A DNA stretch of 64,000 nucleotides. Source: a virus (lineage: Duplodnaviria; Heunggongvirae; Uroviricota; Caudoviricetes). Location: IMG/VR virus record IMGVR_UViG_2721755712_000001; one strand, 5' to 3'. The notes beneath the pieces were generated by a model, which saw only the letters and a program-made list of their open reading frames with translations, ran no database searches and was not told the DNA's origin. The first letter of the stretch is position 1. Every line of letters begins with the position of its first letter. Below, in pieces: positions 3,397-48,322 of the stretch. The translations under genes and the position numbers were made by a program.

Positions 3397-3660
3397 GTGC
3401 TTTCCTTTGTTTTTTAAACAAATTGTTTTCTAGTATTAGTTAATTAGATAGGGGATCAATAAACCGCCGTGCTTCTTCCAGTTCTTCTGGAAAGTGGGCG
3501 GAAATAAGGCGCTCTGGAACGATTTCCATTAGCCAGATAGCGGAGAAAATTGCGCGTATGCGCTTGCTGCGGGGGATGGTGCGTAAACGCTCCAGAATCC
3601 ACTCAAAATAGCTTTCCTGAATCGGGTTGAACTGCATGTCTCCCATATGCTTAAAGCTAA

Positions 3661-5728
<2,068 letters not shown>

Positions 5729-6255
5729 CCGTCGTGCAGCTGCGGAAAGAACGGTGGAGATAAAGTAGTCGTATGAGCAGCAATAGCGGTCAGCAAACTG
5801 GCGTGCTTTCCATAGAGACGTTTTATTGGCAGTCGACAACTCCTGATAAGGCAGGCGTTTTAACCCGGTGGTGAACGGAGCTGTTTCAAAGTGTTCGCGA
5901 CCGTGCGTCAGCATGATATTTGAGTACTGACGTTTGTATGCCTCCGTAAAAAGACAGGTGGCCATGAGAGGATGCATGTCGCGGTAATCAAACCACTTCG
6001 TCTCGAAGAGTTCAGCCTCATCTTTACAGCGCGACAAACCAATGTTTTCAGCAACCCACTTGTCCATAACAGCGGTATTCCACTCTGTCATGAAGTCGTA
6101 CTGGTTGTTGTCGATGGTATCGAAAAAGATTTGGCTCATGTGGCTCACCTGGTAGGTAGTTACTTACTTATCACGATGAGCGGATGATAGCGACTGGTGG
6201 CAGTTTTTGGAAGTGGAAACGGAAGGGAGTTGTTCTGGTGGTGTCTTTTAAAAGA

Positions 6256-6310
6256 CCTGCTTCCGTATATATTTAATAAGTTACTTATTATTTATATATA
6301 CAGAAGCAGG
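6256..6310. repeat. 55-bp AT-rich palindromic element, copy 1 (identical copy at 37562..37616)
   Basis: CCTGCTTCCGTATATATTTAATAAGTTACTTATTATTTATATATACAGAAGCAGG, identical at both sites; GC clamp arms CCTGCTTC/GAAGCAGG; centre TAAGTTACTTA. Confidence 0.85.
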
Positions 6311-6421
6311 CATAACTTGTCGTCTTAGACGCCCAGAAGCTCTACACTTTGAGCCTGTTAAATTGATTAAAAACTTATGTGTAAAATAGAACGCATTAGT
6401 CAGTAGCAAAGAGATGCAATA

Positions 6422-7189
6422 ATGGACGATTTATCGGTATACGCGAGATCATTGGATAAGGCTAAATACTATGTTTACTGCCTCTATGATACAGAAGACA
6501 AGATGAAAAGACCGTTTTACATAGGAAAAGGCAAATCGACTCGTTGTCTCGATCACATCAAGTATCCCGATGACTCTCCCAAATCCATGCGGATCAAAGA
6601 ACTTTTGGCTAATAAAAAATTAGGCATAGATATTCTTCGTCATGGTATGGATGAAACCACAGCCAAACTTGTTGAGGCGACATGCATCGACCTTATGGGG
6701 GTCGGAGAGCTTACGAATAAGGTACGAGGAAGTGGTTCCATGATGGGCAGAATATCACTGGACGCCTACCATCACTTAGTGCTGCAAGAGGAAACTGAAA
6801 TTGCTCCTGAGCACGCCGGTCTTGCCTTCCTGCTAAACAGCACCTACAAGTCAGGAATGTCCGCTCTGGCATTATATGAAGCTACGCGTGGCGTATGGGC
6901 AAAGGTTCCAAGAGACGAGAATCTCAAATATGCCTACGCTACATATGGTGGGCTAATAATGGAAGTTTATCAGATTGAATGCTGGGTCAAAGCCGGTTCT
7001 CAGCAGTACTTTACAAGGGATATAGCTCTTGGCCCCGACACAAAACGTTATGAATTTGTTGGCAGAATAGCCGATGAGCATATTAGAAAACTGTATGTAG
7101 GCAAATTAATCAAGAAGCCACCAAGCTACGGTAGCCCTTTTGTGAAGGTTGGGGTGGTTAGGACTGAACATAGTGTTAGCGCGGCATAA
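6422..7189 (+). CDS. GIY-YIG domain nuclease (possible homing-endonuclease-like protein) with uncharacterised C-terminal domain
   Basis: N-terminus YYVYCLYD...PFYIGKGKSTRCLDH fits the GIY-YIG motif; only plus-strand gene in a minus-strand neighbourhood; bounded by the 55-bp palindrome and a bidirectional terminator. Confidence 0.65.
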   Translation: MDDLSVYARSLDKAKYYVYCLYDTEDKMKRPFYIGKGKSTRCLDHIKYPDDSPKSMRIKELLANKKLGIDILRHGMDETTAKLVEATCIDLMGVGELTNKVRGSGSMMGRISLDAYHHLVLQEETEIAPEHAGLAFLLNSTYKSGMSALALYEATRGVWAKVPRDENLKYAYATYGGLIMEVYQIECWVKAGSQQYFTRDIALGPDTKRYEFVGRIADEHIRKLYVGKLIKKPPSYGSPFVKVGVVRTEHSVSAA

Positions 7190-7204
7190 AGCTGACACTG
7201 TAGT

Positions 7205-7237
7205 TATGCATTGGCGCAATGTACGCGCCAATGCATA
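7205..7237. terminator. bidirectional stem-loop terminator between GIY-YIG gene and partition operon
   Basis: Perfect 13-bp inverted repeat TATGCATTGGCGC / GCGCCAATGCATA, 7-nt loop, flanked by A/T runs. Confidence 0.6.
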
Positions 7238-7241
7238 ATTT

Positions 7242-7601
7242 TTAACCTTTCTTCATCAACTCTCGTTTGATTTCATCGGTACGCATCGTGACATCGGCAG
7301 CGGTGATCGCCTCATTCAATTTCACGATGTCCTCGATTTCCTGCGGTGACTTCTCTGCCAGATGGAAAATGGCTGCTCGAATCACGTCAGAACGAGTGAA
7401 CTTCTCGAAGCGAGGGATGAACTTCATCATCTCCAGCAGTTCGAAGTATTCGTCCTCCAGTGACATTGTGCGGCTTTTAATTTTCTCTTTGCCACGAGTC
7501 GGGCGTCCCTGTGGTCTGACTGGTTGGCGCAAAGGAGTTGTGTTCTTAGCCGGTGCATCAGGCTCTTTGCGCTTTGCTAGGTCACCCATTTTCATGGACA
7601 T
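7242..7601 (-). CDS. small partition-associated protein (ParG/ParB-like centromere-binding candidate)
   Basis: 119 aa, basic N-terminus; start ATG overlaps parA stop (ATGA coupling); GGAGG RBS. Confidence 0.45.
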   Translation of the reverse strand: MSMKMGDLAKRKEPDAPAKNTTPLRQPVRPQGRPTRGKEKIKSRTMSLEDEYFELLEMMKFIPRFEKFTRSDVIRAAIFHLAEKSPQEIEDIVKLNEAITAADVTMRTDEIKRELMKKG

Positions 7602-11039: not shown

Positions 11040-14000
11040 TCAGTTACTTGTTGCCCCAACAGTACCGGCAAATTTCAGCCATTGACCTGACGGACTTCTA
11101 TTACTGCGGTAGTGATAAACGAGGATTGCGTTTGTCACTCCACCGTAATCAGCTTTATGTGACGTTGTTAAACGAATTGTATAATCACCGTTAGGTAGAT
11201 TAAAAACTTCGATTATAGATTCTGCTAATTCTACAGCACCAAATCCCGTTATATTGTTGATACTGCCAGCATTGAATCCCATAGCATCGCCAAAGCCAAT
11301 CCAATATCTTTTGCTAAACGCCCCATTTGATTTAAGGTGGCTAATGAATGTGGACAAACTCATGCCCATATCCCCACCTGAAATAGAGGAAGTTCGCACA
11401 GTCATGCTTGGAAGAGCACTGCTCTTCACATAGGAACTTAGAAGATTCGTTACCTCTGTTTTCGTATAAGCATTAAGGTTAGCCGCAGTCAAAGTAATAT
11501 CGGCAGAGCCATCAAACGCCACACCAGCAATTTTCCTTGCTGTCTGCAATTTTGTGGCGGTTGCTGCATTGCCAGTTGTATTCTGATTGCCAGTGGCATT
11601 CACACCAGGAATGGAGTCCCTTGATGTATATACCTGCGCCCACGCTGACCATGCCGCATCTGTGGTATCTCTTCGTGAGCGAATGAAAACTGGCGCATGT
11701 GCACCGCTCGTACCACTCCAGCCAATAAGCAACTCGCCCTCACCAGCAGCACTCGCACCTTTCATGTGCAATACGTTGCCATACGTGGTCGGGTAGCTAG
11801 TGCTGTACGCCTCGTACATTTGAATGCCAGCAGTGCCTTGAGTAGAGCCGCTTAACGCCGTAACTCGGCCACGAGATACCAATGTATTAATATTGATATC
11901 GCCTGAACCATCAAACTTAACACCATTGATGTTTCTCGCTGTTTGCAACTTCGTAGCAGTAGCCGCGTTGCCCGTTGTATTCTGATTACCTGCCGTATTT
12001 ACACCAGGCAAATTTATGTTCGCAGATCCATCGAAGGCCACGCCGCCGATAGTTCTTGCAGTCTGCAATTTCGTTGCTGTAGCAGCATTTCCTGAAAGAC
12101 TTGAAATAAATGGATGTGAACAGTAATAACCTCGTCCATTTTTAAAGTCCAAAATTATCTGTGCATTCGTACTTTCTGATAAAGGATCAGTTGCCCCCCA
12201 CTTATAAGTGGTTTGACCAACTGCATAATCAGCCGTTGGAACAATTACGTTCAAGCCCTCCTCAGCAAATATCTTGATAGGGAATGCTCTGGCTTCAACG
12301 TAAAATACACTACACAAATCGTCATCTTTCACACTTGAAATAATCGAGTGTATAGCTCGCTCAGCAGTAGAATATATTGAGAAAAAACCAGCCGCATATG
12401 AACCGCGATCAGACCAACCGCCAGGCATAACAAACCCATTAAATTCACAATTATTCATGGCGTATCCGCCAACTGAGGAACCAGTAGTTATCACAACTCG
12501 TGAGGCTAATTCATCGGTACTGCCTCTAGATCGGCGAAAGACTATAGGATACCACTTACCGCTTACTGCATTTGCAGGCGCTGAAAAAGTGTATTTTCTC
12601 ATCCCTTTTTTATTGTCTATTTCGCTTTTGCTGTATACGTCAAGGTTCGCAGGAGTCAGCGTTATGTCCGCAGAACCATCAAACTTAACACCGTTGATTG
12701 TACGCGCTGTCTGTAGTTTTGTAGCGGTTGCAGCATTGCCGGTAGTGCTCTGATTACCAGCCGTATTAACACCTGGCAAATTAATATTCGCAGTACCATC
12801 AAAGCTCACGCCGCCGATAGTTCTTGCCGTCTGAAGTTTTGTAGCAGTTGCAGCATTACCAGTGGTGTTCTGATTACCCGTAGTATTTACACCTGGAAGG
12901 TTGATATTTGCAGAACCGTCGAAACCAACTCCACCGATAGATCTTGCCGTCTGCAATTTCGTTGCTGTACTTGCATTACCATTTAATGTTCCGGTGATAC
13001 CACCAGTAACAGACAACGGACCTGAAACTGTTCCTCCGGTTGTTGGCAGTGCTCCAATATCTAACGGCGTCGGTTTCTGATGTGTGCTATACATCGTATA
13101 AACAACACCATCGGTAACGCTGGAAGGCTTACTCGCTGAATATGTTGGCGATGTATAAATAGAAACTGACGCATTTGCAGTACAATCCCAATGGATATTT
13201 ACACTCGTCGCATAATTGCCAATTTCAACGTAAATATCATATGTATCGCCGGATGTGTTGATCCAGGCGAAATTCGCTAATCCGACAGCTGTACGCTTCC
13301 ACAAAGCACCTGTAATTCCTTTGGGGTTTCCATTGCCTGCTCGTAGAACCAGTTCTGAAATGCCTGCCTGATGTGGGGAACCGACGTTGTAACCAGCGCC
13401 ACCAATCAATGCGATGTAAACGATGGAACTCGCTTGTGGCATGGTAACCGTAGCCAGTTTGAACCACCCTGCCCCGCCAGAGAAAGACATCGTTACTGAA
13501 TTTAAAGTACCAATATCTTTCGGCGTTAATGTGATATCCGCAGTCAGTGCTTTTCCGTTAACTTTTCGGTTAGATGGCACCCTGCTATTCGCATTGTCAT
13601 TGGCTGCTTTAACTGCTTTTGGCGTTGCGGCCAGCGATTCACTGGTGCTGTCGACAGCACTGCTAAGTTTCACAACACCTTTAGTTGTAAGGCTTGCGTC
13701 TTCCATCGCAACTGCACCGGCAATCTCTTCAGCACGATCAGCAGCAGCTTCCGCACGGGTCGCAGCGGATTCAGCAGCAGTTTTGCTCTGAGATGCTGCC
13801 GTCGCACTGCCTGCCGCCTCTGTTGCTTTCGTGGATGCCGTCGTGGCGCTGCCCTTCGCTGCTGACGCCTGTCTGGTCGCCTCATCTTTTGAAGCAGACG
13901 CCGATGATGCCGATGACGCCGCCGAACTGGCGGACGATGCGGCTGCCGTTTTTGAGGATTCTGCACGGTTTTCCGACGCTTTCGCGTTCGTTTCGGATGT

Positions 14001-15109: not shown

Positions 15110-15112
15110 CAT

Positions 15113-15133
15113 TAAGTAATTACTTACCTATTC
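15113..15133 (-). promoter_or_regulatory. class II motif (TAAGTAATTACTTA palindrome; minus-strand ATAGGTAAGTAATTA) upstream of fibre gene
   Basis: One of ~11 instances of an ATAAGTA/TACTTAT inverted-repeat family placed 15-60 nt upstream of minus-strand gene starts. Confidence 0.45.
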
Positions 15134-15161: not shown

Positions 15162-18100
15162 TCACAGACGGCCAATTCTTACTCGTAAGACGTTGTTATC
15201 GTCATAAACGTCAATCCGCTGACCATTTATAACCAATCGCCCATTGCCGCCGCTATTACCGTTGATCTCAAGCGTTCCATTTTTGCCGAACCGCCATCCA
15301 GATCTACCGCTAACAAAATTGGTAGATTGCAGATCGCCTACTTTTGCATTGGTGATTGTGCCATCCTTGATATACGCTCCATTCATATAGGCGATACTGT
15401 TTTCGATAACAAATGGCGTTGTGATCTTCCCGTTAACAGAGTTGACCAAACCAAACCTGTCCGCCTGAACCAAAAACTGAGATAGCCCAGTGGTGTCAAT
15501 ACCAAGCGCAATACCGGCAACATACTTCTGCCCTCCGCTCGTTGAAGTCTCCATTTTCAACGTCCACGCGGTTGATACTTTTTTGTTGGTATCAGCAATA
15601 GCTGTTGCCTGCTGTTGAATTGTCGCGGTATTTCCATCCACCTCTGCTTTCAGAGTATCGATTCGCCCACTCAGAGCATTATCTGCCTGCGTTCTCGCTG
15701 TCGTTTCAGTTGTTACCGCCGCGGAAATGTTGGCTGCCGTTTGAGACTCTAAGTTTGTGATTTGAGTCGCCAGTGCCGCATCTTGCTCTGTACGCGTTTT
15801 CGTTTCGGTTGCTACAGCCGCTTTAATATCCTCTTTGTATTGAGAGGTCAGCTTGGTGATCTGAGACGACAACGCCGAGTCAGCATCAGTTCGAGCCTGC
15901 GTTTCAACTGCAACGGCCGCACTAATATCTTTCGCAGTCTGTGCTTTTAAACTTGAAACCTCTTTTGTTAAAGCGGTATCACCATCTGCACGAGCCGTTG
16001 TTTCTCTGGCAAGAGATGCCTCAAGATCATTAGCTTTTGCTGTAAGAGACGTAATCTGAGTGGACAATGCACTATCGGCATCAGTCCTTGCTTTTGTCTC
16101 TACAGCAACCGCTGCGGCAATATCAGTTCCGGTTTGTGCTCGCAGGCTGTTAATTTCTCGTGAGAGCGCCTGGTCAGCACTTGCTCTGGCCTCCTGCTCC
16201 TGAGTGATGGCAGCGGATATATCACCGTCAACCTTTGACTGAAGCTGGTTTATTTGTTTGGCTAACGCAGAGTCCCCGCTTGCTCGGGCCTCCTGCTCAC
16301 TACGTATTGCAGCAGAAATATCATCATCAACCTTTGCCTGAAGTTGGGTGATCTGGCTTGCCAGAGCCGAATCTTCCGTTGCTCGGGCTTCTTGCTCTTC
16401 CTTAATAGCTGCGACGATATCGTTGCTTACTTTCGACTCAAGCTGAGTGATCTGTGTCGTCAGAGCTTCATCGGCAGATGTACGAGCCTCCTGCTCTGTA
16501 CTAATCGCCGCGCTGATATCTCCTTCAAACTTAGATTGCAGCTGAGTGACACGCTTTGCCAACGCTTCATCGCCATCGGCACGAGCGGTGGACTCTTCCA
16601 GAATACTGGCCTTAATGTCTTCGCCAATTTCTACGCGAATTTCCTCAACCTTCGTGGCCATTGCAGACATATCATCAGCAAAGGTTTTCTGTGTTGTTGC
16701 GATCTTCGCGTTATTGACCATCTGCTTGTGCTGGTCTTCATCTTGACGAAGAGCCAGGTCAATATTTGTTTTGGCCAACGCCTCAATGTTCGTAGTCAGT
16801 TCTGCACTGGCACGATCGACCTCTGCAACCGTCTTTTTCATTTCTTCAACGGCAGCGGAGCTTTCCTCTACCGTTGACTGCAACACTTCCAGTTGTTTAG
16901 CGTTTGCAGCATCGCCTTCAACACGAGCCTCGCTTTCCTTAGCAATAAGAGCCGCCGCTTCATCTCTTGCAGCCTTTATTGCCTCGACTGTATTAGCGAG
17001 AGCTTTATCGTGTTCAGATACGGTGTTTTCGATTTCAACAATTGCAGCATCAGTAGCATCAATTTTTTCAAACGCTTCATTGACCTTGTCGATCGTTGCC
17101 GAAACCTCACCTTTAAGCTCGGTTTGTGCGTTCTCCAAAGCATCGCTACGCTCGTTGAATTTTATTTCAAAATCCGCGAGGTTATCGCTGAACTGCTTAT
17201 CTAATTCAGCTATATCTTCCTTAACGTCGTTTACCGACCCCTCCAAAGATTCGACGCTCTGGTTGATATGCTCATTTAACTCGTCAACTGCTTCTTGAGA
17301 GGCTTTGCTGTTGATGTCCTCAAGCAGAGCCTGACCAAGCTCGGAAGATGTAATTTTGCCAGTCAGGAACGACAGTACATCGCGAGTTGTCGCCTCTGTA
17401 CCCAAGTTTGAGTTCGGAGGACTTAACATACCTCGCTTGTTCGATGCTCGAACCCAGTAATACCACGTTTCGCTATCCCCAAGACCAGCATGTGTAAAGG
17501 TGGTGCTTGCAGACTCTGCGATCAGTTTCGCCGTATCCAGATTGTTGGTCTGGGATGCGTAAACATTAATGTGATCAAGGTCCACCGAATCTGGATTAAC
17601 CCAATTCAGTATCACATTACGATAGTCTCCAACGGCCGTTAATGACGTTGGTGCATCCGGCGGTGTCATTGTGCCCAGCACCTGATAAACGGTACTGATA
17701 ATTTCTGTTTTTTTACCGTTGAATGAAACCGCATACAGTTGGAAGTCGTAGCGTCCATTCTCCGCGACATTAACGATTTCGTATTGCTCTTCGGTTACAC
17801 GCGCCGATTGCCAGTTCGATACATTGTTTTCATCAGAACGTCGCCAACTGATCCAATACTCTGGAGATTTCCCTTCCCATGTTGCAGTCAGTTTTACTGA
17901 CAGGTTGCCAGGGCTTGAGAGATAAGTCCCTTCGGTGATTTGCAAATTAGACGGCTTGGAGTAAGTCGGGTCCAATACCGTCGTATTTTGCGGGATAAGC
18001 GTTGCACCATTGTCGATCGCCTCATATTTAGACGGATTGTTCTCAACAGCGGTGATGTCAAAGCTACCCGGCGTTTCCCCCTGCGCGATGTTAACGATGC

Positions 18101-32117: not shown

Positions 32118-32135
32118 TAGATAATTACTTATCTA
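32118..32135 (-). promoter_or_regulatory. class II motif, perfect palindrome TAGATAAGTAATTATCTA, between capsid stop and terminator
   Basis: 7-bp arms TAGATAA/TTATCTA around GTAA; same family as other structural-gene upstream motifs. Confidence 0.45.
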
Positions 32136-33045: not shown

Positions 33046-33933
33046 TTACTTAAGTCCAATTTTCCCCAGACCGGAGGCCAACTTATCCATAGTCGACTTG
33101 TTCTTCGGTCGGGATATTGTGTAGGTCGATTTGGAATGTGAGCCTACACCCTGCTTGGCTTCGCTACGCATCAATGCGTCAGCTTCCGGATCTGCCCGCA
33201 CAATGCGTTCAATCGCGGATTCAAACGGCAACGGCTTACCTTCACCGTCAACCAGAACAGCTCGTTCTTTGTGACCTGCCGGTTTGTCATAACCCACTAC
33301 GCTACCGTCTTCACCCACTTCAAAATGAGAACCGTAGATCACGCGGGCTTTTGCCGGGGTCATCAGAACTTTGTCACGTAGGAAGAGAGAGTTACTGAAG
33401 GAAGCGCCCACGGTCATCTCGACTAATTGAGATTTCAGTGATGCGTTTTCACTTTCCAGTGCTGCATAACGTTCGTCACGCTGTGCCAGCTCTGCCTGGT
33501 GTGCTTCGATCATCTGTTTTTTAACAGCATCGAACTCACCACGACGCTCCAGTTCAGCTTGCTCCGCCTCACGACGTGCGTTTTCTGCGGCTTGTTCAGC
33601 TTCTAAAAGCTGGCGAGCACGAGCCGGATCGATATCACCGTACTGAGCAAGCTGATCGGCCAATGTGCGCTCTTTCTCTTTGCGCTTCATGTTCTCCTTC
33701 AGCAGTTCAGCACCAGCTTTCTTGGTTTTACGAAGTTCGGCCAGTAACTCTTCCTGAGTCATGCCAGCGTATTCGTCATCGCCCTTCGGCTGCTCTTTTT
33801 GTTCACCCTGTTTGTCAGGATCTTGTGTACTCTGCTCATTATCAGCAGCTACACCGCCAGCGCCTCCACGCTCATGCGCTTCAGCGACATCCATCAGACC
33901 ACGACGGGCCAAAAGCATTTGCCACAGATTCAT
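33046..33933 (-). CDS. scaffolding protein
   Basis: 295 aa, highly charged alpha-helical/coiled-coil composition; between portal and capsid genes. Confidence 0.55.
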   Translation of the reverse strand: MNLWQMLLARRGLMDVAEAHERGGAGGVAADNEQSTQDPDKQGEQKEQPKGDDEYAGMTQEELLAELRKTKKAGAELLKENMKRKEKERTLADQLAQYGDIDPARARQLLEAEQAAENARREAEQAELERRGEFDAVKKQMIEAHQAELAQRDERYAALESENASLKSQLVEMTVGASFSNSLFLRDKVLMTPAKARVIYGSHFEVGEDGSVVGYDKPAGHKERAVLVDGEGKPLPFESAIERIVRADPEADALMRSEAKQGVGSHSKSTYTISRPKNKSTMDKLASGLGKIGLK

Positions 33934-33954: not shown

Positions 33955-35529
33955 TCACTCGTTCTCTTGAGTAGATGAGTCCCCATTCCCTCGGGGTTGA
34001 TCTTGCCCGCTTTCTTGGGCTGCACCACGATCATAAGTAAGTACTGACTTATTTTCAAGGGTATTTAGATCATTTTTTGGAGGAAAATTCAAGAGATCTT
34101 TATCAAATTCCTTTTTCATCGCCTCAGTAATGTTCGGGAAAATCTTCTCAATAAGCATTTCCATCTGGTGACGACGTACAGAGTCCGGTGCCTGAAGTAA
34201 TGACAGTTTCTCGGCAACAGAAAATTCATCAGTAAGGCCACGAATATCGAAACTTTCTGGATACGCAATTAAAGAGTGGTCTTCGTCCAGATCTACCCCC
34301 ATCCATTTCGCAACCAGTAGCATGATTTGGCGTTCAGCCCTTTCCAGACGCTCTGCTTTTGTGACAAGCAAGCTATTTACACGCTGGAAGTCATACATTT
34401 TTGCGGCACCAGATGAGTTATCGATTCCCTGTGCGTTGTCCTGCTTCGTTCGCTCACCAGCTACACCAACTGAATGGTAGATTTCGTTAATCACCGTCTT
34501 AATCGTAGTGATGATCATCTGAGCTTGTTTCGGGTCTGGTGACAGATAAAACGGCTGGTTTCCACCTTCAGAATCGTAGGTGAAGACTCGCTTTGTGCCC
34601 ATTTCAAGCACTTTAGTGTGGTTTTCATCACCAGGTAAAAGCGACTGTACCGGTATAGCCAACTGGCTAAATGTCTGATCCTGAATAATGGCATCAAGGT
34701 TTGACAGATAGTTTGCAACCGCACGATCAAGATAAGCGATATCATCGATCAACGATGGGCTGAAATACGGTGATTCACTTTCTCCAATACAATCAACAGG
34801 AAATACAGGAACTACGCCGAGATTATGCGCGCCGCTGTCCTCTAAAATAACTTTTGCCTGACGACGACCTGCTCCACCAGCGCCCTTCTTCACTTCCTCA
34901 CGGAACAGATACCACTCGTTTTGTGTCCACAGACGATAACGTTGGTATTCCTGACCTGTAGAAGTAAAAGGATCTGCGTCATCGCGAGCGACTTCCACAA
35001 TTAACGCCCATAACATATTCCCGTCGTCGTCCCATGCCACATCCAGCATTTGCTGAGGTGAAATCCAGTAGGCGTAGGCGCGAGCATCTTTCTTTTTCTC
35101 GTCAGCTACTGACTCAACATCACCACTCATCGTGCTATCGACAACAACCCATATGCGACCGTAAATAGACGACTGCAAATCAATAGCGGCCATAAATGAG
35201 TCAATAGAGGCATTCTGGCGAGTCGCACGTTTCCAGAAATTGCGGATCTGCTCTGGTGCCTCTTCGATATTTCTATGAATGTCTTCTTTAAAGAGATATT
35301 TGTTGATGAGGTTTACCACCTCACGAGTGTGGTTGAAGCGATAAGCACGTTCAACTCGCTCCTTAAACTCCTGATCTCCCTCTTTAAAGTAACGAAAGAT
35401 ATTGTCTGTAAACCAACCACGCCCGCCAGCGTAAGTGCTGGCGAGGAAGTCCCAATGTTCTTTTTTCTTTTCGTATTCCGGGTGGCGTCGCGCCACCAGA
35501 TCCTTAATTTGTTTGTCGTTCAATTCCAT
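33955..35529 (-). CDS. portal protein
   Basis: 524 aa, immediately downstream of terL and upstream of scaffold, the canonical portal position. Confidence 0.6.
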   Translation of the reverse strand: MELNDKQIKDLVARRHPEYEKKKEHWDFLASTYAGGRGWFTDNIFRYFKEGDQEFKERVERAYRFNHTREVVNLINKYLFKEDIHRNIEEAPEQIRNFWKRATRQNASIDSFMAAIDLQSSIYGRIWVVVDSTMSGDVESVADEKKKDARAYAYWISPQQMLDVAWDDDGNMLWALIVEVARDDADPFTSTGQEYQRYRLWTQNEWYLFREEVKKGAGGAGRRQAKVILEDSGAHNLGVVPVFPVDCIGESESPYFSPSLIDDIAYLDRAVANYLSNLDAIIQDQTFSQLAIPVQSLLPGDENHTKVLEMGTKRVFTYDSEGGNQPFYLSPDPKQAQMIITTIKTVINEIYHSVGVAGERTKQDNAQGIDNSSGAAKMYDFQRVNSLLVTKAERLERAERQIMLLVAKWMGVDLDEDHSLIAYPESFDIRGLTDEFSVAEKLSLLQAPDSVRRHQMEMLIEKIFPNITEAMKKEFDKDLLNFPPKNDLNTLENKSVLTYDRGAAQESGQDQPRGNGDSSTQENE

Positions 35530-35540
35530 TTGAATAACCT

Positions 35541-35560
35541 TAGATAATTACTTACCTATC
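35541..35560 (-). promoter_or_regulatory. class II motif (minus-strand GATAGGTAAGTAATTATCTA) overlapping terL stop, 15 nt upstream of portal start
   Basis: Shares the core ATAGGTAAGTAATTA with the fibre-gene upstream site. Confidence 0.45.
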
Positions 35561-36812
35561 GAGAACCACCAAGAATAACACGGTTTTTGACTGGATACCT
35601 ACGATGTACTGGATAGCCCAATGCGTCTGCACTATGCTCAATGCCACCTGTCTTATCCATATCTCGTGTTCCAGGCTTGTAGATGACTTTTTCCAGTGAA
35701 TCAATCAAATGCTTGCACTTCGGATCGATATACAGCCGGATATCTCCAGATGCGGTCATCAGCATTCGGTTAACAGCATTAACACGATCCGCAATTGGCG
35801 GGTGCTTTTTCGAATAATCGACACGTAAGAATCCCTTCTCTTTGAATATGTCGACGTCAGACTCCCCGCGAGCATGTTGGCGATAAGCACCTGCCGGATC
35901 TGGAAATACCGTTATCTGTGATTTCCAGCGCCAGAAGCGTCTCTCAAGCTCATCACAAACCTCTGCCGTGTTAGAGGAAAAGAGCACCAATTCATCAATT
36001 GCCCATAGCTCACCATTTGGCTGAGGTTGCAAAATTACGGAAGACATCGGGTCAATGTTGAAGTCCTGCCCTACCCATATAGGCAACCGAGGGTTGAACT
36101 GAAGCGGTTTTACATGCACGTTACGATCAAACGGGTAGTAAACGCGCCCGGACATGTTCTCAAAGCTGGCCAGGTACTCCTGAGCGAACGATTTGGGGTC
36201 CATATCGTTCTTAGCAGCTTCAATTTCCGCCGTAGGTACAAACGGAGAATCGGCAGTTACAAACTGCCAGCTCTTCCACTGTCCCTTTCTTTGCAGCTCT
36301 ACGTTCTGGCCTATAGTCCACAGTTTGTGAAATTCCGAGAAGCCTTTTGGCGTACCAATGATCAGTGCACCGCCGCGTGTCGATGAAAGAGTAGGTCGTA
36401 ACACCTTGTACCAGGTGTCAGCCTTCATATCCTGAAATTCATCAAGCACTACAAAATGCAACGCTACGCCGCGCAGAGTGTCAGGCTTATCAGCACCTTT
36501 GAGGGCGATCTCCGAACCGTTCTTCAACACGATTGTCATCGTGGTGTCGTTCTTTTTCCTAACCCACTTACGAGGCAGAACTTCCTGTAGATCGTCCCAC
36601 AAAATCTGGCGAGCCATTTGGTAAGTAGGAGCGACATACCAGACCCTTTGCTTTTTTTCCTTTGCCGCCGCACGAATAATAGTGGAGATCGACAACCGGG
36701 ATTTTCCCCAGCGTCGACCAGCACAAACAACTTTAAATCGATGCGGAGACTGGAAGACTTTCATCTGTCCAGAATGCAGTTGCACAAGACTGAGCGAGGA
36801 CGGGATTGCCAT
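35556..36812 (-). CDS. terminase large subunit
   Basis: 418 aa; Walker A-like VVCAGRRWGKS near N-terminus, acidic nuclease-like C-terminal half; start overlaps terS stop. Confidence 0.8.
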   Translation of the reverse strand: MAIPSSLSLVQLHSGQMKVFQSPHRFKVVCAGRRWGKSRLSISTIIRAAAKEKKQRVWYVAPTYQMARQILWDDLQEVLPRKWVRKKNDTTMTIVLKNGSEIALKGADKPDTLRGVALHFVVLDEFQDMKADTWYKVLRPTLSSTRGGALIIGTPKGFSEFHKLWTIGQNVELQRKGQWKSWQFVTADSPFVPTAEIEAAKNDMDPKSFAQEYLASFENMSGRVYYPFDRNVHVKPLQFNPRLPIWVGQDFNIDPMSSVILQPQPNGELWAIDELVLFSSNTAEVCDELERRFWRWKSQITVFPDPAGAYRQHARGESDVDIFKEKGFLRVDYSKKHPPIADRVNAVNRMLMTASGDIRLYIDPKCKHLIDSLEKVIYKPGTRDMDKTGGIEHSADALGYPVHRRYPVKNRVILGGSR

Positions 36813-37444
36813 TATTCGTCCTCCTCTTCACTTCCATCATCTGTCGCATCAAATTCGCTTAGAGCTTCTTCTTCCAACGTCTCAAGCAATTCGTCATCGA
36901 TGATTTCAGGCTCGTCGTCTTCCTGACGTAATTTCGCCACCTGGGAAGGCGTAAGCTCACCAAATACCAGGTTCGGAATTTCTTCCTCGTCATTTTCCGC
37001 ATGATCCATGCCCAATGCTTTGGACGAAACTTCAAAGCATTTTGCAAGGGTATTACTGGCTCTCTGTAAGCTCTTGAGAGAATCCTCAATCGCCCCTAAA
37101 GGCTTACCCTCACGTTTGGCCGTAGTGACTTCGACCATCACCATCTGCCCCAACGCATACGCCCAGCCGTCATAACGTGTACGACGTTCTTCTATCTTTT
37201 CCGCACGGGCTTTAGCGCGAAGCTCTGCGTCAGATTTAAGAGACTCACGAACCATCTTCCCAACAGAGTCCGCACCTTTCTCTAATCCTCGCTTTTTGAA
37301 ATGTCTGGAGAGTGTTTCACGACGAATGCCGTACTCTTCCTCCAGCTTTGAGAGTGTATATTCGCCTGACGTCCATTTGGCTTCAGCTTCGGCCCACTCC
37401 GCTGGTGTCAGGCGAGTTTTTACCTCGTCTTTTTCGACCGTCAT
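36812..37444 (-). CDS. terminase small subunit (putative)
   Basis: 210 aa, HTH-like N-terminus, very acidic C-terminal tail, coupled to terL. Confidence 0.55.
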   Translation of the reverse strand: MTVEKDEVKTRLTPAEWAEAEAKWTSGEYTLSKLEEEYGIRRETLSRHFKKRGLEKGADSVGKMVRESLKSDAELRAKARAEKIEERRTRYDGWAYALGQMVMVEVTTAKREGKPLGAIEDSLKSLQRASNTLAKCFEVSSKALGMDHAENDEEEIPNLVFGELTPSQVAKLRQEDDEPEIIDDELLETLEEEALSEFDATDDGSEEEDE

Positions 37445-37454
37445 AGATCCCTCT

Positions 37455-37480
37455 AAAACACACAGAGCGCGTCCATGCGC
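37455..37480 (-). terminator. hairpin (AGAGCGC-ATGGAC-GCGCUCU then GUGUGUUUU) between promoter/operator region and terS start
   Basis: 7-bp GC-rich stem followed by a U-rich tract immediately upstream of the terS RBS (AGAGGGA); candidate attenuator/antitermination target. Confidence 0.4.
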
Positions 37481-37535
37481 TCTAAAACAACTTGTTTACT
37501 GAATCTGCTAACCAACTTGTTTTCTGGGGTGTTTA
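37481..37535 (-). promoter_or_regulatory. two adjacent class I operator-like palindromes upstream of terS
   Basis: AAAACAACTTGTTTAC and AACCAACTTGTTTTCTGG, followed by GGGGTGTTTAATTAG (minus strand CTAATTAAACACCCC), matching the class I leader consensus. Confidence 0.45.
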
Positions 37536-37561
37536 ATTAGGTCTGGGCATGTCTTATTAAG

Positions 37562-37616
37562 CCTGCTTCCGTATATATTTAATAAGTTACTTATTATTTA
37601 TATATACAGAAGCAGG
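37562..37616. repeat. 55-bp AT-rich palindromic element, copy 2 (identical to 6256..6310)
   Basis: Identical over 55 bp to copy 1, with similar imperfect flanks; lies between the wHTH gene and the terS regulatory region. Confidence 0.85.
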
Positions 37617-37640
37617 TCTTTAAATAAGCTCCCAGACCGA

Positions 37641-37907
37641 TTACATCACCAGTAACTTCGCTTTGGCTCGACCTAAAGTGGTTAACCCAAGAGTTCGGCG
37701 GTGATAGCGATTGTCACTGCGTTGGCGCGTATGCCCTTTCTCCACCAGCCCCTTTTTTATCAGAGCGCGAATTGAGAACTGGATACTTTGCTTGGTTGTC
37801 TTGTACGGCAAAACTTCAAGCAATTCGTCCAGATCAAGTAAATGACCTCGCTCATAACCGAGATTGAGCGTTTTGATGATGTCCTTTTGTTTATCGGTTA
37901 ACGTCAT
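37641..37907 (-). CDS. small winged-helix-like DNA-binding protein (putative regulator), last gene of the ParB/ATPase cassette
   Basis: 88 aa, basic C-terminus; AAGGA RBS 9 nt after the stop of the upstream gene. Confidence 0.4.
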   Translation of the reverse strand: MTLTDKQKDIIKTLNLGYERGHLLDLDELLEVLPYKTTKQSIQFSIRALIKKGLVEKGHTRQRSDNRYHRRTLGLTTLGRAKAKLLVM

Positions 37908-40814: not shown

Positions 40815-40833
40815 TTTATTGCTACAATCCACT

Positions 40834-40859
40834 AAGTAATCACTTACTTATTATAATAG
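40834..40859. promoter_or_regulatory. divergent promoter region: class II palindrome TAAGTAA-TCAC-TTACTTA plus TATAAT hexamers
   Basis: Between the ParB-like cassette (minus) and the SF2 helicase gene (plus); TATAAT readable on both strands at 40850-40857. Confidence 0.45.
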
Positions 40860-47555: not shown

Positions 47556-47705
47556 TTGTACGAATAAGGCGTCAAAGTGGAAAGTTGCGGTAGCCGGACG
47601 AGAACAGGTGGGTTTGTCGGTTGCCTGGAGGTAAGAGGTTGGTGTTTTTAGCCTGCGGGAAACAGGATGGTCATTTAAGGCCACCAGCATTGGTGGCCTT
47701 AGTCT

Positions 47706-47993
47706 TTAGTGGAGCAGACCGATGTCGATGGTATCCCCTGAATCATCCACACGGATCATCAGCATGGCGAAGGCGTTTAGTGGATAGCTTGCGTGCCATT
47801 CAGGGAAGCGGTCATCTCGCATGAAGTCGGCAATGTCGTAAACGCAGCCCTCAAAGTGGAAGAATCGCGTGCTTACCTGCTCGTCATATTCCACATGATC
47901 CATTTCTTGCTGTTCTGTTTCCGGCAAGTCCAGCCATGATTCAAGGAATACATTTTGTGCTTTAGGGGTAATGGTGAAATCAGTCATGAGCAT
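47706..47993 (-). CDS. small acidic early protein (hypothetical; anti-defence/DNA-mimic candidate)
   Basis: ATG 47991-47993 with GAGGA RBS; 95 aa, strongly acidic; class I promoter upstream. Function is speculative. Confidence 0.45.
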   Translation of the reverse strand: MLMTDFTITPKAQNVFLESWLDLPETEQQEMDHVEYDEQVSTRFFHFEGCVYDIADFMRDDRFPEWHASYPLNAFAMLMIRVDDSGDTIDIGLLH

Positions 47994-48006
47994 ATCCTCA
48001 CTGCGT

Positions 48007-48040
48007 AAACATATTGTTTTCTTGTTGGTGTAATTATCGC
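48007..48040 (-). promoter_or_regulatory. class I promoter/operator (CGATAAT-TACACCAACAAGAAAACAATATGTTT)
   Basis: Same architecture as the 47521-47555 site. Confidence 0.5.
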
Positions 48041-48322
48041 AGTGTAGATAAGGCATAAAAGAAGTTAATACAGGCTGAATACACAAGAAAGGTTCTGGAA
48101 GTTGATAGCCAGGTTTCAAACTAACCTTCGGTTATTAAAAGTCATTTAAGACCACCAATGCTGGTGGCCTTAATAATTATCGCCCGATTACGCTAAGGAT
48201 CTTTTCCTCAACTGATTTGTTGTTGCGACTAAACTGCCTTGCGTATCTGATGACAGAAGAGGCGTTTTGCTTTCTGACCATCTCGGCTCTTTCCTTCAGG
48301 CGTTTCTTGAAATCGCCCATAT

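Follow-up and report, generated by a model that had tools for sequence, protein, structure and literature searches.

The sequence analysed here, referred to throughout as the window, is a stretch of 64,000 nucleotides (nt) from IMG/VR virus record IMGVR_UViG_2721755712_000001. It is an SSU5/pHCM2/pMT1-type phage-plasmid, with 99% identity to Escherichia phage CMS-2020a, 97% to PhiR41_1 and approximately 80% to Salmonella phage SSU5, and it carries the 55-nt palindrome CCTGCTTCCGTATATATTTAATAAGTTACTTATTATTTATATATACAGAAGCAGG exactly twice, at 6256-6310 and 37562-37616, both on the + strand. Copy 1 is found 111 nt upstream of a gene encoding a GIY-YIG endonuclease, and copy 2 falls between a ParB_N/ABC-ATPase cassette and the gene at the terS (small terminase) position, 24 nt past the stop codon of a gene for an 88-amino-acid protein and 117 nt ahead of the terS start. 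The gene arrays around both copies are encoded on the - strand of the window (coordinates of all features are collected in Table 1). Both sites and their gene context had been correctly described in an initial annotation, and the duplication is confirmed: no further match was found in the window when up to three mismatches were allowed, and no match to the 55-mer was seen in 100 dinucleotide-preserving shuffles.

The element occupies three fixed sites in a family of phage-plasmids

Searching related genomes for the element and its copy number, a check proposed at the outset, returned approximately 820 plasmids with three fixed sites per genome. The 55-mer alone matched 824 PLSDB plasmids, 799 of them with a place at 80% coverage or more, and the hosts were Klebsiella, Escherichia, Enterobacter, Yersinia (pMT1, in which site T is retained), Salmonella (pHCM2-type), Citrobacter and Cronobacter. 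Every one of the matches listed lay outside annotated genes, and the weakest, in Bacillus and Helicobacter, were partial and due to chance. The BLAST counts of two to six places per PLSDB record include matches of the palindrome to both strands. Among complete E. coli genomes the element was present in 259 of 5,426, with 991 of its 993 places on plasmids and the remaining two on a single chromosome. A scan of a 596-Gb genome collection with a 15-base pattern, which is too unspecific for a collection of that size, gave almost entirely chance matches and one true one, in Kluyvera.

All 75 copies found by pattern in IMG/VR, together with those of PhiR41_1, SSU5 and the window, could be assigned by flank homology to only three sites, and all were in one orientation. 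Site T, window copy 2, is between the 88-amino-acid gene and terS; site P, window copy 1, is between a variable ParA-side region and a block of SSU5_038, DnaB-helicase and primase genes, and is orthologous by flank homology to SSU5 33458-33513; site M, which lies outside the window, is just past a DNA methyltransferase gene. The three are direct repeats on the main coding strand, and they split the genome into a virion/lysis/ParA block, a replication and nucleotide-metabolism block, and an accessory/regulatory block. A generic host repeat of the REP/ERIC type is rejected by the location of 991 of the 993 E. coli places on plasmids and of 75 of the 75 sampled copies at the three orthologous sites. 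Similarity to the ERIC core, which we take to be represented by the primer sequences, was at the null level: the best local alignment score of 10 equals the 95th percentile of the null distribution, whose mean is 7.8.

Since the IMG/VR sample depended on the sequence of the element itself, we resampled through the flanking proteins. The element was found ahead of all 74 terS loci and all 78 loci of the 038 family recovered in this way. Across these 152 loci its distance to the start codon was 94-117 nt for terS and 106-122 nt for the 038 family; measured in three genomes it was 107-118 nt. If the gene before the element is co-directional, its stop codon is 22-27 nt away (24 nt at T, 22 and 27 nt at P and M in SSU5, and 23 nt at M in PhiR41_1). 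At copy 1 in the window the gene upstream is the divergent GIY-YIG gene and is not co-directional. The flanks of T and M are conserved on both sides, as is the downstream flank of P. Upstream of P (6311-7240 in the window) the flank is hypervariable: 77 loci show at least 27 flank types, each ending at the element edge or within a few nt of it. The sequence at P forms the edge of a hypervariable accessory region, and it may serve as a homology anchor for module exchange as a by-product.

No Rfam family matched anywhere in the window at the gathering threshold, and no description of the element or of the SSU5 termini was found in the searchable literature. The three-site hairpin family is apparently undescribed so far, and is probably ordinary in mechanism.

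The 55-nt sequence is the core of a longer dyad

The 55-mer is an imperfect dyad that folds into a single long hairpin. Copy 1 has a predicted folding energy of -23.3 kcal/mol on the + strand and -30.2 kcal/mol on the - strand, and copy 2 of -24.9 and -30.8 kcal/mol; z-scores against shuffles range from -6.2 to -8.6 (-8.6 on the coding strand). The window hairpin is thus 6-7 kcal/mol more stable on the coding strand, because an asymmetric position gives a U·G pair on one strand and a C·A mismatch on the other. The - strand transcript of copy 1 reads CCUGCUUCUG...CGGAAGCAGG, with the U·G wobble at pair 9.

While the initial annotation was right that each copy is a dyad capable of forming a hairpin, the symmetric unit exceeds 55 bp, and its orientation is functional. 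Each 55-mer is the core of a dyad of approximately 100 nt (100-120 nt at T). An outer inverted repeat, GTCTGGGAG/CTCCCAGAC, is found about 20 nt upstream and 13-35 nt downstream of the core at T and M, and is also present in SSU5. A weaker version is seen at P, and at copy 1 the segments of the outer repeat pair when the element is folded together with flanks of 45 nt. In the copy 2 dyad the middle segment is self-complementary too, and a 145-nt segment around T folds at -56.1 kcal/mol on the coding strand here and at about -56 to -59 kcal/mol overall. Between the inner and outer stems the sequence is not the same in the Salmonella and E. coli lineages, yet it is self-complementary in both.

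The two arms of the inner stem, CCTGCTTC-Y-GTATA and TATAC-R-GAAGCAGG, are nearly invariant across genera and at all three sites. The interior between them, which is 87% A+T, varies by site and by lineage, and slippage of TA units gives total lengths of 51-57 nt. Covariation analysis with RNAalifold was uninformative, since there is no variation in the 12 outer pairs and TA slippage prevents alignment of the interior. In its place we used an interior-shuffle test and a strand test based on wobble pairs and mismatches. Each of the 26 distinct variants was more self-complementary than shuffles of its own interior (median z of -3), and each of the 26 folds at -17.5 kcal/mol or lower. The apex of the hairpin, TAAGTAACTTA, looks like a shortened form of a palindromic motif, TAAGTAATTACTTA, that is dispersed over the window.

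U-tracts and wobble pairs point to a hairpin acting in the transcript

The strand test was applied to the outer 14 pairs of the stem in 172 copies. Read on the coding strand, the non-Watson-Crick pairs comprised 156 G·U and 21 C·A, and in distinct sequences the count was 46 to 6. A common clamp variant, CCTGTTTC, a one-sided change seen at 25 P-site loci, keeps the U·G pair, and in one copy a stem pair is fully compensated, from C-G to U-A through U·G. Since a duplex site or a cruciform should show no strand bias, this asymmetry points to a single-strand function of coding polarity, and we conclude from these sequence patterns that the hairpin probably acts on one strand, in RNA.

We scored a U-tract wherever there were at least five T in the first eight nt of the tail on the coding strand. 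A TCTTTT-type tail was found at 72 of the 78 P loci and at 19 of the 20 M loci, and at none of the 74 T loci. At P and M the tract is retained even though the lineages diverge in the sequence beyond it. Ordinary short GC-rich terminators are used elsewhere in the genome, so the long hairpins form a distinct class. We favour, with moderate confidence, the reading that they are a family of long AT-rich, GC-clamped stem-loops that punctuate the junctions of three co-directional gene blocks and act in the transcript, and we infer that transcripts are terminated or processed at them.

At P and M the hairpin and its adjacent U-tract would act as a Rho-independent terminator that insulates the next block, for which a separate promoter would lie about 50-60 nt downstream; by eye, -10 and -35 boxes that look plausible can be picked out downstream of both sites. 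At T the U-less hairpin is more probably a leaky terminator, a 3'-end stabiliser or a processing hairpin (for example, a substrate for RNase III), and it would stand ahead of a late-operon leader with a short terminator of its own. Of the bidirectional terminator put forward in the initial annotation, the terminator part is supported for copy 1, with its hairpin and U-tract at site P, but bidirectionality is not, nor is a canonical form at copy 2.

Several observations weigh against this reading. The complete lack of U-tracts at T (0 of 74 loci, copy 2 of the window included), and their lack in the hairpins of the nickie-group and Rhizobium phages described below, mean that canonical termination is not the common denominator of the family. 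The 14-nt arms and the GTCTGGGAG/CTCCCAGAC repeat are far more conserved than the flanks (approximately 76-80% identical between genera), and the arms show almost no compensatory substitution, a hint that some factor may recognise the sequence itself. Ahead of copy 1 are a divergent gene and a separate, likely bidirectional, terminator at 7204-7238, so there is little obvious upstream transcription for it to terminate. The excess of G·U pairs could derive in part from a C-to-T mutation bias on the non-template strand, and the copies that were counted are not phylogenetically independent. A simple terminator scan of the window did not call the element, presumably owing to the stem and loop limits of the scan, although it picked up the short terminator of the terS leader.

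The conservation of the arm sequence and the existence of U-less hairpins keep alive a factor-dependent alternative, which we consider unlikely. Here, the hairpin would be a sequence-specific signal in RNA, or in single-stranded DNA of the coding strand, through which a conserved phage factor would switch the three boundaries between closed in the plasmid state and open, by read-through, in the lytic state. The U-less T site would then be the regulatory prototype, and the system would be conserved from enterobacterial SSU5-type phage-plasmids to the Pseudomonas and Rhizobium siphoviruses of approximately 110 kb.

Related hairpins are found in distant phages

Gene order is unchanged in phages whose TerS is 29-33% identical. 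In Pseudomonas phage nickie there are exactly two related long hairpins, both lacking a U-tract. One is found after the small gene that precedes terS, and is therefore equivalent to T, while the other, the longest local dyad in the first 50 kb, comes after PhoH and before a 038-like gene and DnaB, in the position of P. The two have interior sequence in common but not clamp sequence. A T-equivalent hairpin is also present in phages hairong and ZY21. In Rhizobium phage RHph_N1_10 the hairpin in the position of T is 90 nt long (-40 kcal/mol); its GC clamp ends in CTTC and its AT-rich interior starts with GTATTTAATAT. No convincing hairpin was seen in Stenotrophomonas phage BUCTxx99. The clamp motif CTTC..GTAT/ATAC..GAAG recurs in the Rhizobium phage hairpin, and CCTGCTTTCC recurs in hairong. 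The presence of analogous hairpins in such distant phages indicates that the boundary hairpin predates the enterobacterial family and is not a canonical terminator in every case.

The T-equivalent hairpin of the nickie group (7196-7275 in nickie) runs directly up to a TATAAT/TATACT hexamer (GACAAGCAG-TATAAT), so that a promoter may overlap its right arm. Nickie, ZY21 and hairong share a conserved right arm, but in ZY21 the left arm is divergent.

Comparison with known stem-loops and palindromes

The closest known kinds of element are intrinsic terminators and the PeSL cassettes of T4-type phages. Like Rho-independent terminators, the elements at P and M have a GC-rich stem base followed by a U-tract, and, where a co-directional gene precedes it, the element is found tens of nt past the stop codon that ends the array, with the next putative promoter following. 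In contrast, its stem is approximately 25 bp long and mostly A-U, within an element of 51-57 nt that is itself enclosed in a dyad of about 100 nt, its sequence is conserved across three sites and approximately 820 replicons, and the hairpins at T and in the Pseudomonas and Rhizobium phages have no U-tract.

PeSLs are composite terminator-promoter cassettes (PMC2839356, PMC4122927). As with these, the element is a repeated, conserved intergenic stem-loop, after which come a putative promoter, the Shine-Dalgarno sequence and the start of the next gene, and one copy, P, borders a hyperplastic region of changing gene content. However, PeSLs are present in dozens inside hyperplastic regions, whereas the element has three fixed copies, with far longer stems and no recombination products seen between them. 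By eye, there is also no promoter common to the T, P and M leaders, which share only about 25 nt (AAGAC..CCAGAC).

RNase III processing hairpins occur in polycistronic phage mRNAs, such as those of the T7 early region and lambda sib. They too are irregular intergenic hairpins of more than 20 bp in co-directional operons, for which a U-tract is optional, and this fits T and the nickie-type hairpins. No sequence relationship with them was found, however, and P and M have terminator-type tails.

Dispersed plasmid palindromes offer a further comparison. The SopB centromere repeats of N15 and the KorB operators of RK2 are duplex sites of 13-16 bp without strand bias. The element resembles them in being a conserved palindrome present a few times over a low-copy replicon that has ParB-family genes, but it is 55-100 nt long and variable in length, with strand-specific wobble pairs and U-tracts.

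Exact identity of the two copies is confined to one sub-lineage

The initial annotation took the perfect identity of the two copies to imply selection or recent conversion. Among the 45 genomes from which both sites were recovered, T and P were identical in seven, all of which carry the variant of the window, and the median difference between them was 6 of 55 positions. T and P share lineage-specific interiors, AAATAATAAGT in the E. coli types and AAATACTAAGT in the Salmonella types, and the P-variants assort independently of the T-variants. With identity restricted to seven of 45 genomes, it reflects a recent event rather than a general property. These results suggest gene conversion or recombination in a single E. 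coli sub-lineage, so that the expectation of conversion held for this sub-lineage but does not extend to the family.

Alternative explanations for the element

A duplex or cruciform DNA site for a conserved phage protein, which might be one of two ParB_N proteins or the 88-amino-acid MarR-like protein and would organise, silence or partition the replicon, is a rather unlikely alternative. It would account for the near invariance of the CCTGCTTC-Y-GTATA arms across genera and sites with almost no compensation, for the conservation of GTCTGGGAG/CTCCCAGAC at T and M, and for the reappearance of the clamp motif in the Rhizobium phage and of CCTGCTTTCC in hairong, and DNA-binding genes adjoin T in all the relatives. 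Against this, a ratio of 156 wobble pairs to 21 mismatches is not expected of a duplex or cruciform, the 51-57-nt length range produced by TA slippage shifts the phasing of the half-sites, and one-sided clamp changes such as CCTGTTTC are common (25 P-site loci). The conserved U-tract at P and M, the constant placement just past a stop codon wherever a co-directional gene precedes, and the sharing of interior but not clamp by the nickie hairpins argue in the same direction, and nothing links the 88-amino-acid protein or the two nearby ParB_N proteins to the element. That the element is the target of the adjacent homing-type GIY-YIG endonuclease, another suggestion of the initial annotation, is very unlikely. 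The gene abuts the 5' edge of copy 1 in the coding orientation, and homology to relatives that lack the endonuclease (it is absent from Cyrano, SCU-175 and SSU5) breaks exactly at the element edge, which is typical of a free-standing homing endonuclease inserted beside a conserved sequence. However, the gene is lineage-specific, being present beside 25 of the 77 P sites and never beside T or M, whereas the element is universal, at three sites in approximately 820 plasmids, and a nuclease that cut the core would cut its own genome at T, P and M. The nuclease therefore cannot explain the existence of the element; it is a later arrival that may exploit a conserved sequence. The other 52 P loci, without the GIY-YIG gene, have at least 26 upstream flanks, all likewise ending at the element edge or within a few nt of it.

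The element could instead be primarily a recombination anchor for module exchange, as proposed for the T4-type PeSL cassettes (PMC2839356, PMC4122927), or a site-specific recombination or resolution site. The hypervariable upstream and conserved downstream flanks of P are as expected of such a site, as are the independent assortment of P- and T-variants and the conversion between copies that is indicated by their common lineage-specific interiors and by their identity in one sub-lineage; the phage also encodes a recombinase and an exonuclease, and the PeSLs offer a documented precedent. Yet not one junction corresponding to a deletion or a reciprocal T×P exchange was found at 80% coverage or more among 247 and 408 matching PLSDB plasmids, the flanks of T and M are conserved on both sides, and there are only three copies, all direct and at fixed positions. 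Some 21-27 nt of variable AT-rich sequence lie between the 14-nt arms, and not 6-8, which does not fit the core sites of tyrosine recombinases, and the U-tract, the strand asymmetry and the fixed stop-codon distance would be left without explanation. We therefore regard a primary role in recombination, including the recombination or resolution pair envisaged at first, as quite unlikely. A likeness of the arms to loxP (CTTCGTATA) was dismissed in view of the 21-27-nt spacer and the three direct copies, as was a protelomerase site of the telRL type, given that PhiR41_1 has a circular record and that no copy is terminal or inverted.

The position of T, 117 nt upstream of terS in a geometry like that of cosN-cosB-Nu1, raises the question of packaging, with T as a pac or cos site recognised or cleaved by terminase and P and M as related pseudo-sites. 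The linear SSU5 record (NC_018843.1/JQ965645.1) starts and ends inside palindrome T, at 103263-103299 and 1-18 (...CTTATTA / AATATATACGG...), the Cyrano record has the same start, and distant relatives also keep a hairpin at the T position. A cos phage would nevertheless be put at risk by three near-identical cores per genome, the TerL match to the PBSX family (headful-type) is weak, and the nickie record starts away from its T-equivalent hairpin. The SSU5 break does not coincide with the centre of the dyad. A break of the assembly at the longest palindrome accounts for it equally well and is simpler than a physical end; no published end-mapping was found in the literature. As packaging also leaves the strand asymmetry and the U-tracts unexplained, we consider it highly improbable. 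An origin-like DNA unwinding element, also among the initial proposals, or a single-strand priming hairpin for lytic replication, is extremely unlikely. The AT-rich core (interior 87% A+T) and the location of P directly upstream of the 038, DnaB-helicase and primase genes are compatible with such a role, and a strand-specific signal would fit a single-stranded DNA hairpin as well. But the cumulative GC skew has no inflection at P or M, three copies are found at stereotyped gene-end positions, with U-tracts at P and M, no iterons or DnaA boxes were noticed nearby, and the plasmid replication gene (repA-like) lies elsewhere.

Neighbouring genes and other features of the window

The genes on either side of the two copies, together with the coordinates of the elements themselves, are listed in Table 1.

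Table 1. Positions in the window of the two element copies, their component parts and neighbouring features. A full stop in the strand column marks a feature without assigned strand.
Feature	Position	Strand	Basis
Copy 1 (site P), inner 55-nt stem-loop	6256..6310	-	Exact match, RNA fold, flank homology
U-tract UCUUUU, directly 3' of the copy 1 hairpin	6250..6255	-	The sequence itself
Extended dyad of copy 1	6233..6338	-	Outer inverted repeat TTCTGG (6233-6238) / CCAGAA (6333-6338)
Copy 2 (site T), inner 55-nt stem-loop, without U-tract	37562..37616	-	Exact match, fold
Extended dyad of copy 2	37540..37638	-	Outer inverted repeat GGTCTGGG (37540-37547) / CCCAGACC (37631-37638)
terS-position gene (phrog_867, 'DNA binding domain')	36812..37444	-	Annotated small terminase in phage Cyrano
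Terminator-like hairpin GAGCGC-ATGGAC-GCGCTC + UGUGUGUUUUAG	37453..37484	-	Terminator scan
Two AAACAAnTTGTTT palindromes between copy 2 and terS	37485..37522 (37485-37497, 37510-37522)	.	Motif scan
88-amino-acid MarR-like winged-helix protein (predicted; phrog_900), last gene before copy 2	37641..37907	-	AlphaFold and Foldseek
Truncated SSU5_038 homologue (phrog_2500), first gene downstream of copy 1	5672..6148	-	Profile match
GIY-YIG endonuclease gene, lineage-specific insertion	6422..7189	+	Pfam PF22945 (LEM-3-like GIY-YIG)
TAAGTAATTACTTA sites	6152-6171, 15112-15131, 32118-32135, 34033-34052, 35540-35559, 40832-40851		

The terS-position gene is the first of the virion/late block downstream of copy 2. 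The short terminator-like hairpin that precedes it is of canonical form, has a U-tract, is found only a few nt before the terS ribosome-binding site, and is also present in SSU5, PhiR41_1, nickie, ZY21 and hairong. This arrangement of promoter and terminator in the leader suggests that the late (virion) operon may be under antitermination or attenuation control. The two AAACAAnTTGTTT palindromes between copy 2 and terS are probable operator or promoter elements of the late leader. Over the whole window, the motif has 18 matches at up to two mismatches, where 6.3 are expected, and 13-nt sites are found at 3416, 8305, 37485, 37510, 47522, 48007, 48757, 49660, 50144, 51338, 53378 and 53429, often extended to ...TTTTCTTGnTGGTGTTAAT. 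They lie upstream of parA, twice upstream of terS and repeatedly in the accessory/regulatory region, which looks like a multi-operator regulon. The C1 operators of P1, which are likewise dispersed, are comparable.

Phage-plasmids of the SSU5/pHCM2/pMT1 type are common in clinical Enterobacteriaceae and carry resistance genes, while their regulatory architecture is essentially unstudied. The present analysis maps three conserved hairpins that delimit their virion, replication and accessory blocks, and this map, the AAACAAnTTGTTT motif and the terS leader provide testable handles on how lytic functions are kept silent during plasmid replication. The P hairpin sets a precise boundary for the hypervariable cargo region, and the element is a compact diagnostic sequence for the plasmid family.

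For the 88-amino-acid product of the gene just before copy 2, structure prediction gives, with good confidence, a MarR-like winged-helix DNA-binding protein; the AlphaFold model (pLDDT of 82) has Foldseek TM scores of 0.7-0.76 to MarR-family structures. A homologue search returned only close, unnamed relatives. A small gene is found at the same position in the Pseudomonas, Rhizobium and Stenotrophomonas relatives, as judged by synteny only.

Downstream of copy 1, the SSU5_038 homologue is 158 amino acids long in the window, compared with 246 in PhiR41_1, and matches positions 1-145 of the 248 in phrog_2500. Beside the truncated gene are two + strand open reading frames, 3861-4883 and 4880-5662 (approximately 2 kb), which appear from the coordinate offset to be absent from PhiR41_1 and are probably an insertion into the 3' part of the 038 gene. 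On the other side of copy 1, a perfect hairpin with 14-nt arms (TTATGCATTGGCGC ... GCGCCAATGCATAA) at 7204-7238, between the convergent GIY-YIG gene and a gene of the ParA operon encoding a 119-amino-acid protein, is likely to be a bidirectional terminator.

Other repeats were noted in the window. The palindromic motif TAAGTAATTACTTA (repeat families D7 and D13) recurs near the points where several late-block genes begin. Two 27-nt GC-rich hairpins that are nearly identical (TTAAGGCCACCAGCATTGGTGGCCTTA), at 47675-47701 and 48147-48173, inverted with respect to each other, flank an open reading frame at 47706-48119, which looks like a terminator-bracketed moron. The large tail genes contain in-frame repeats, tandem or dispersed (16149-16544 and 11497-12980): four 99-nt units in the gene for a 1577-amino-acid tail protein, and repeats of 113-197 nt in that for a 1342-amino-acid tail fibre.

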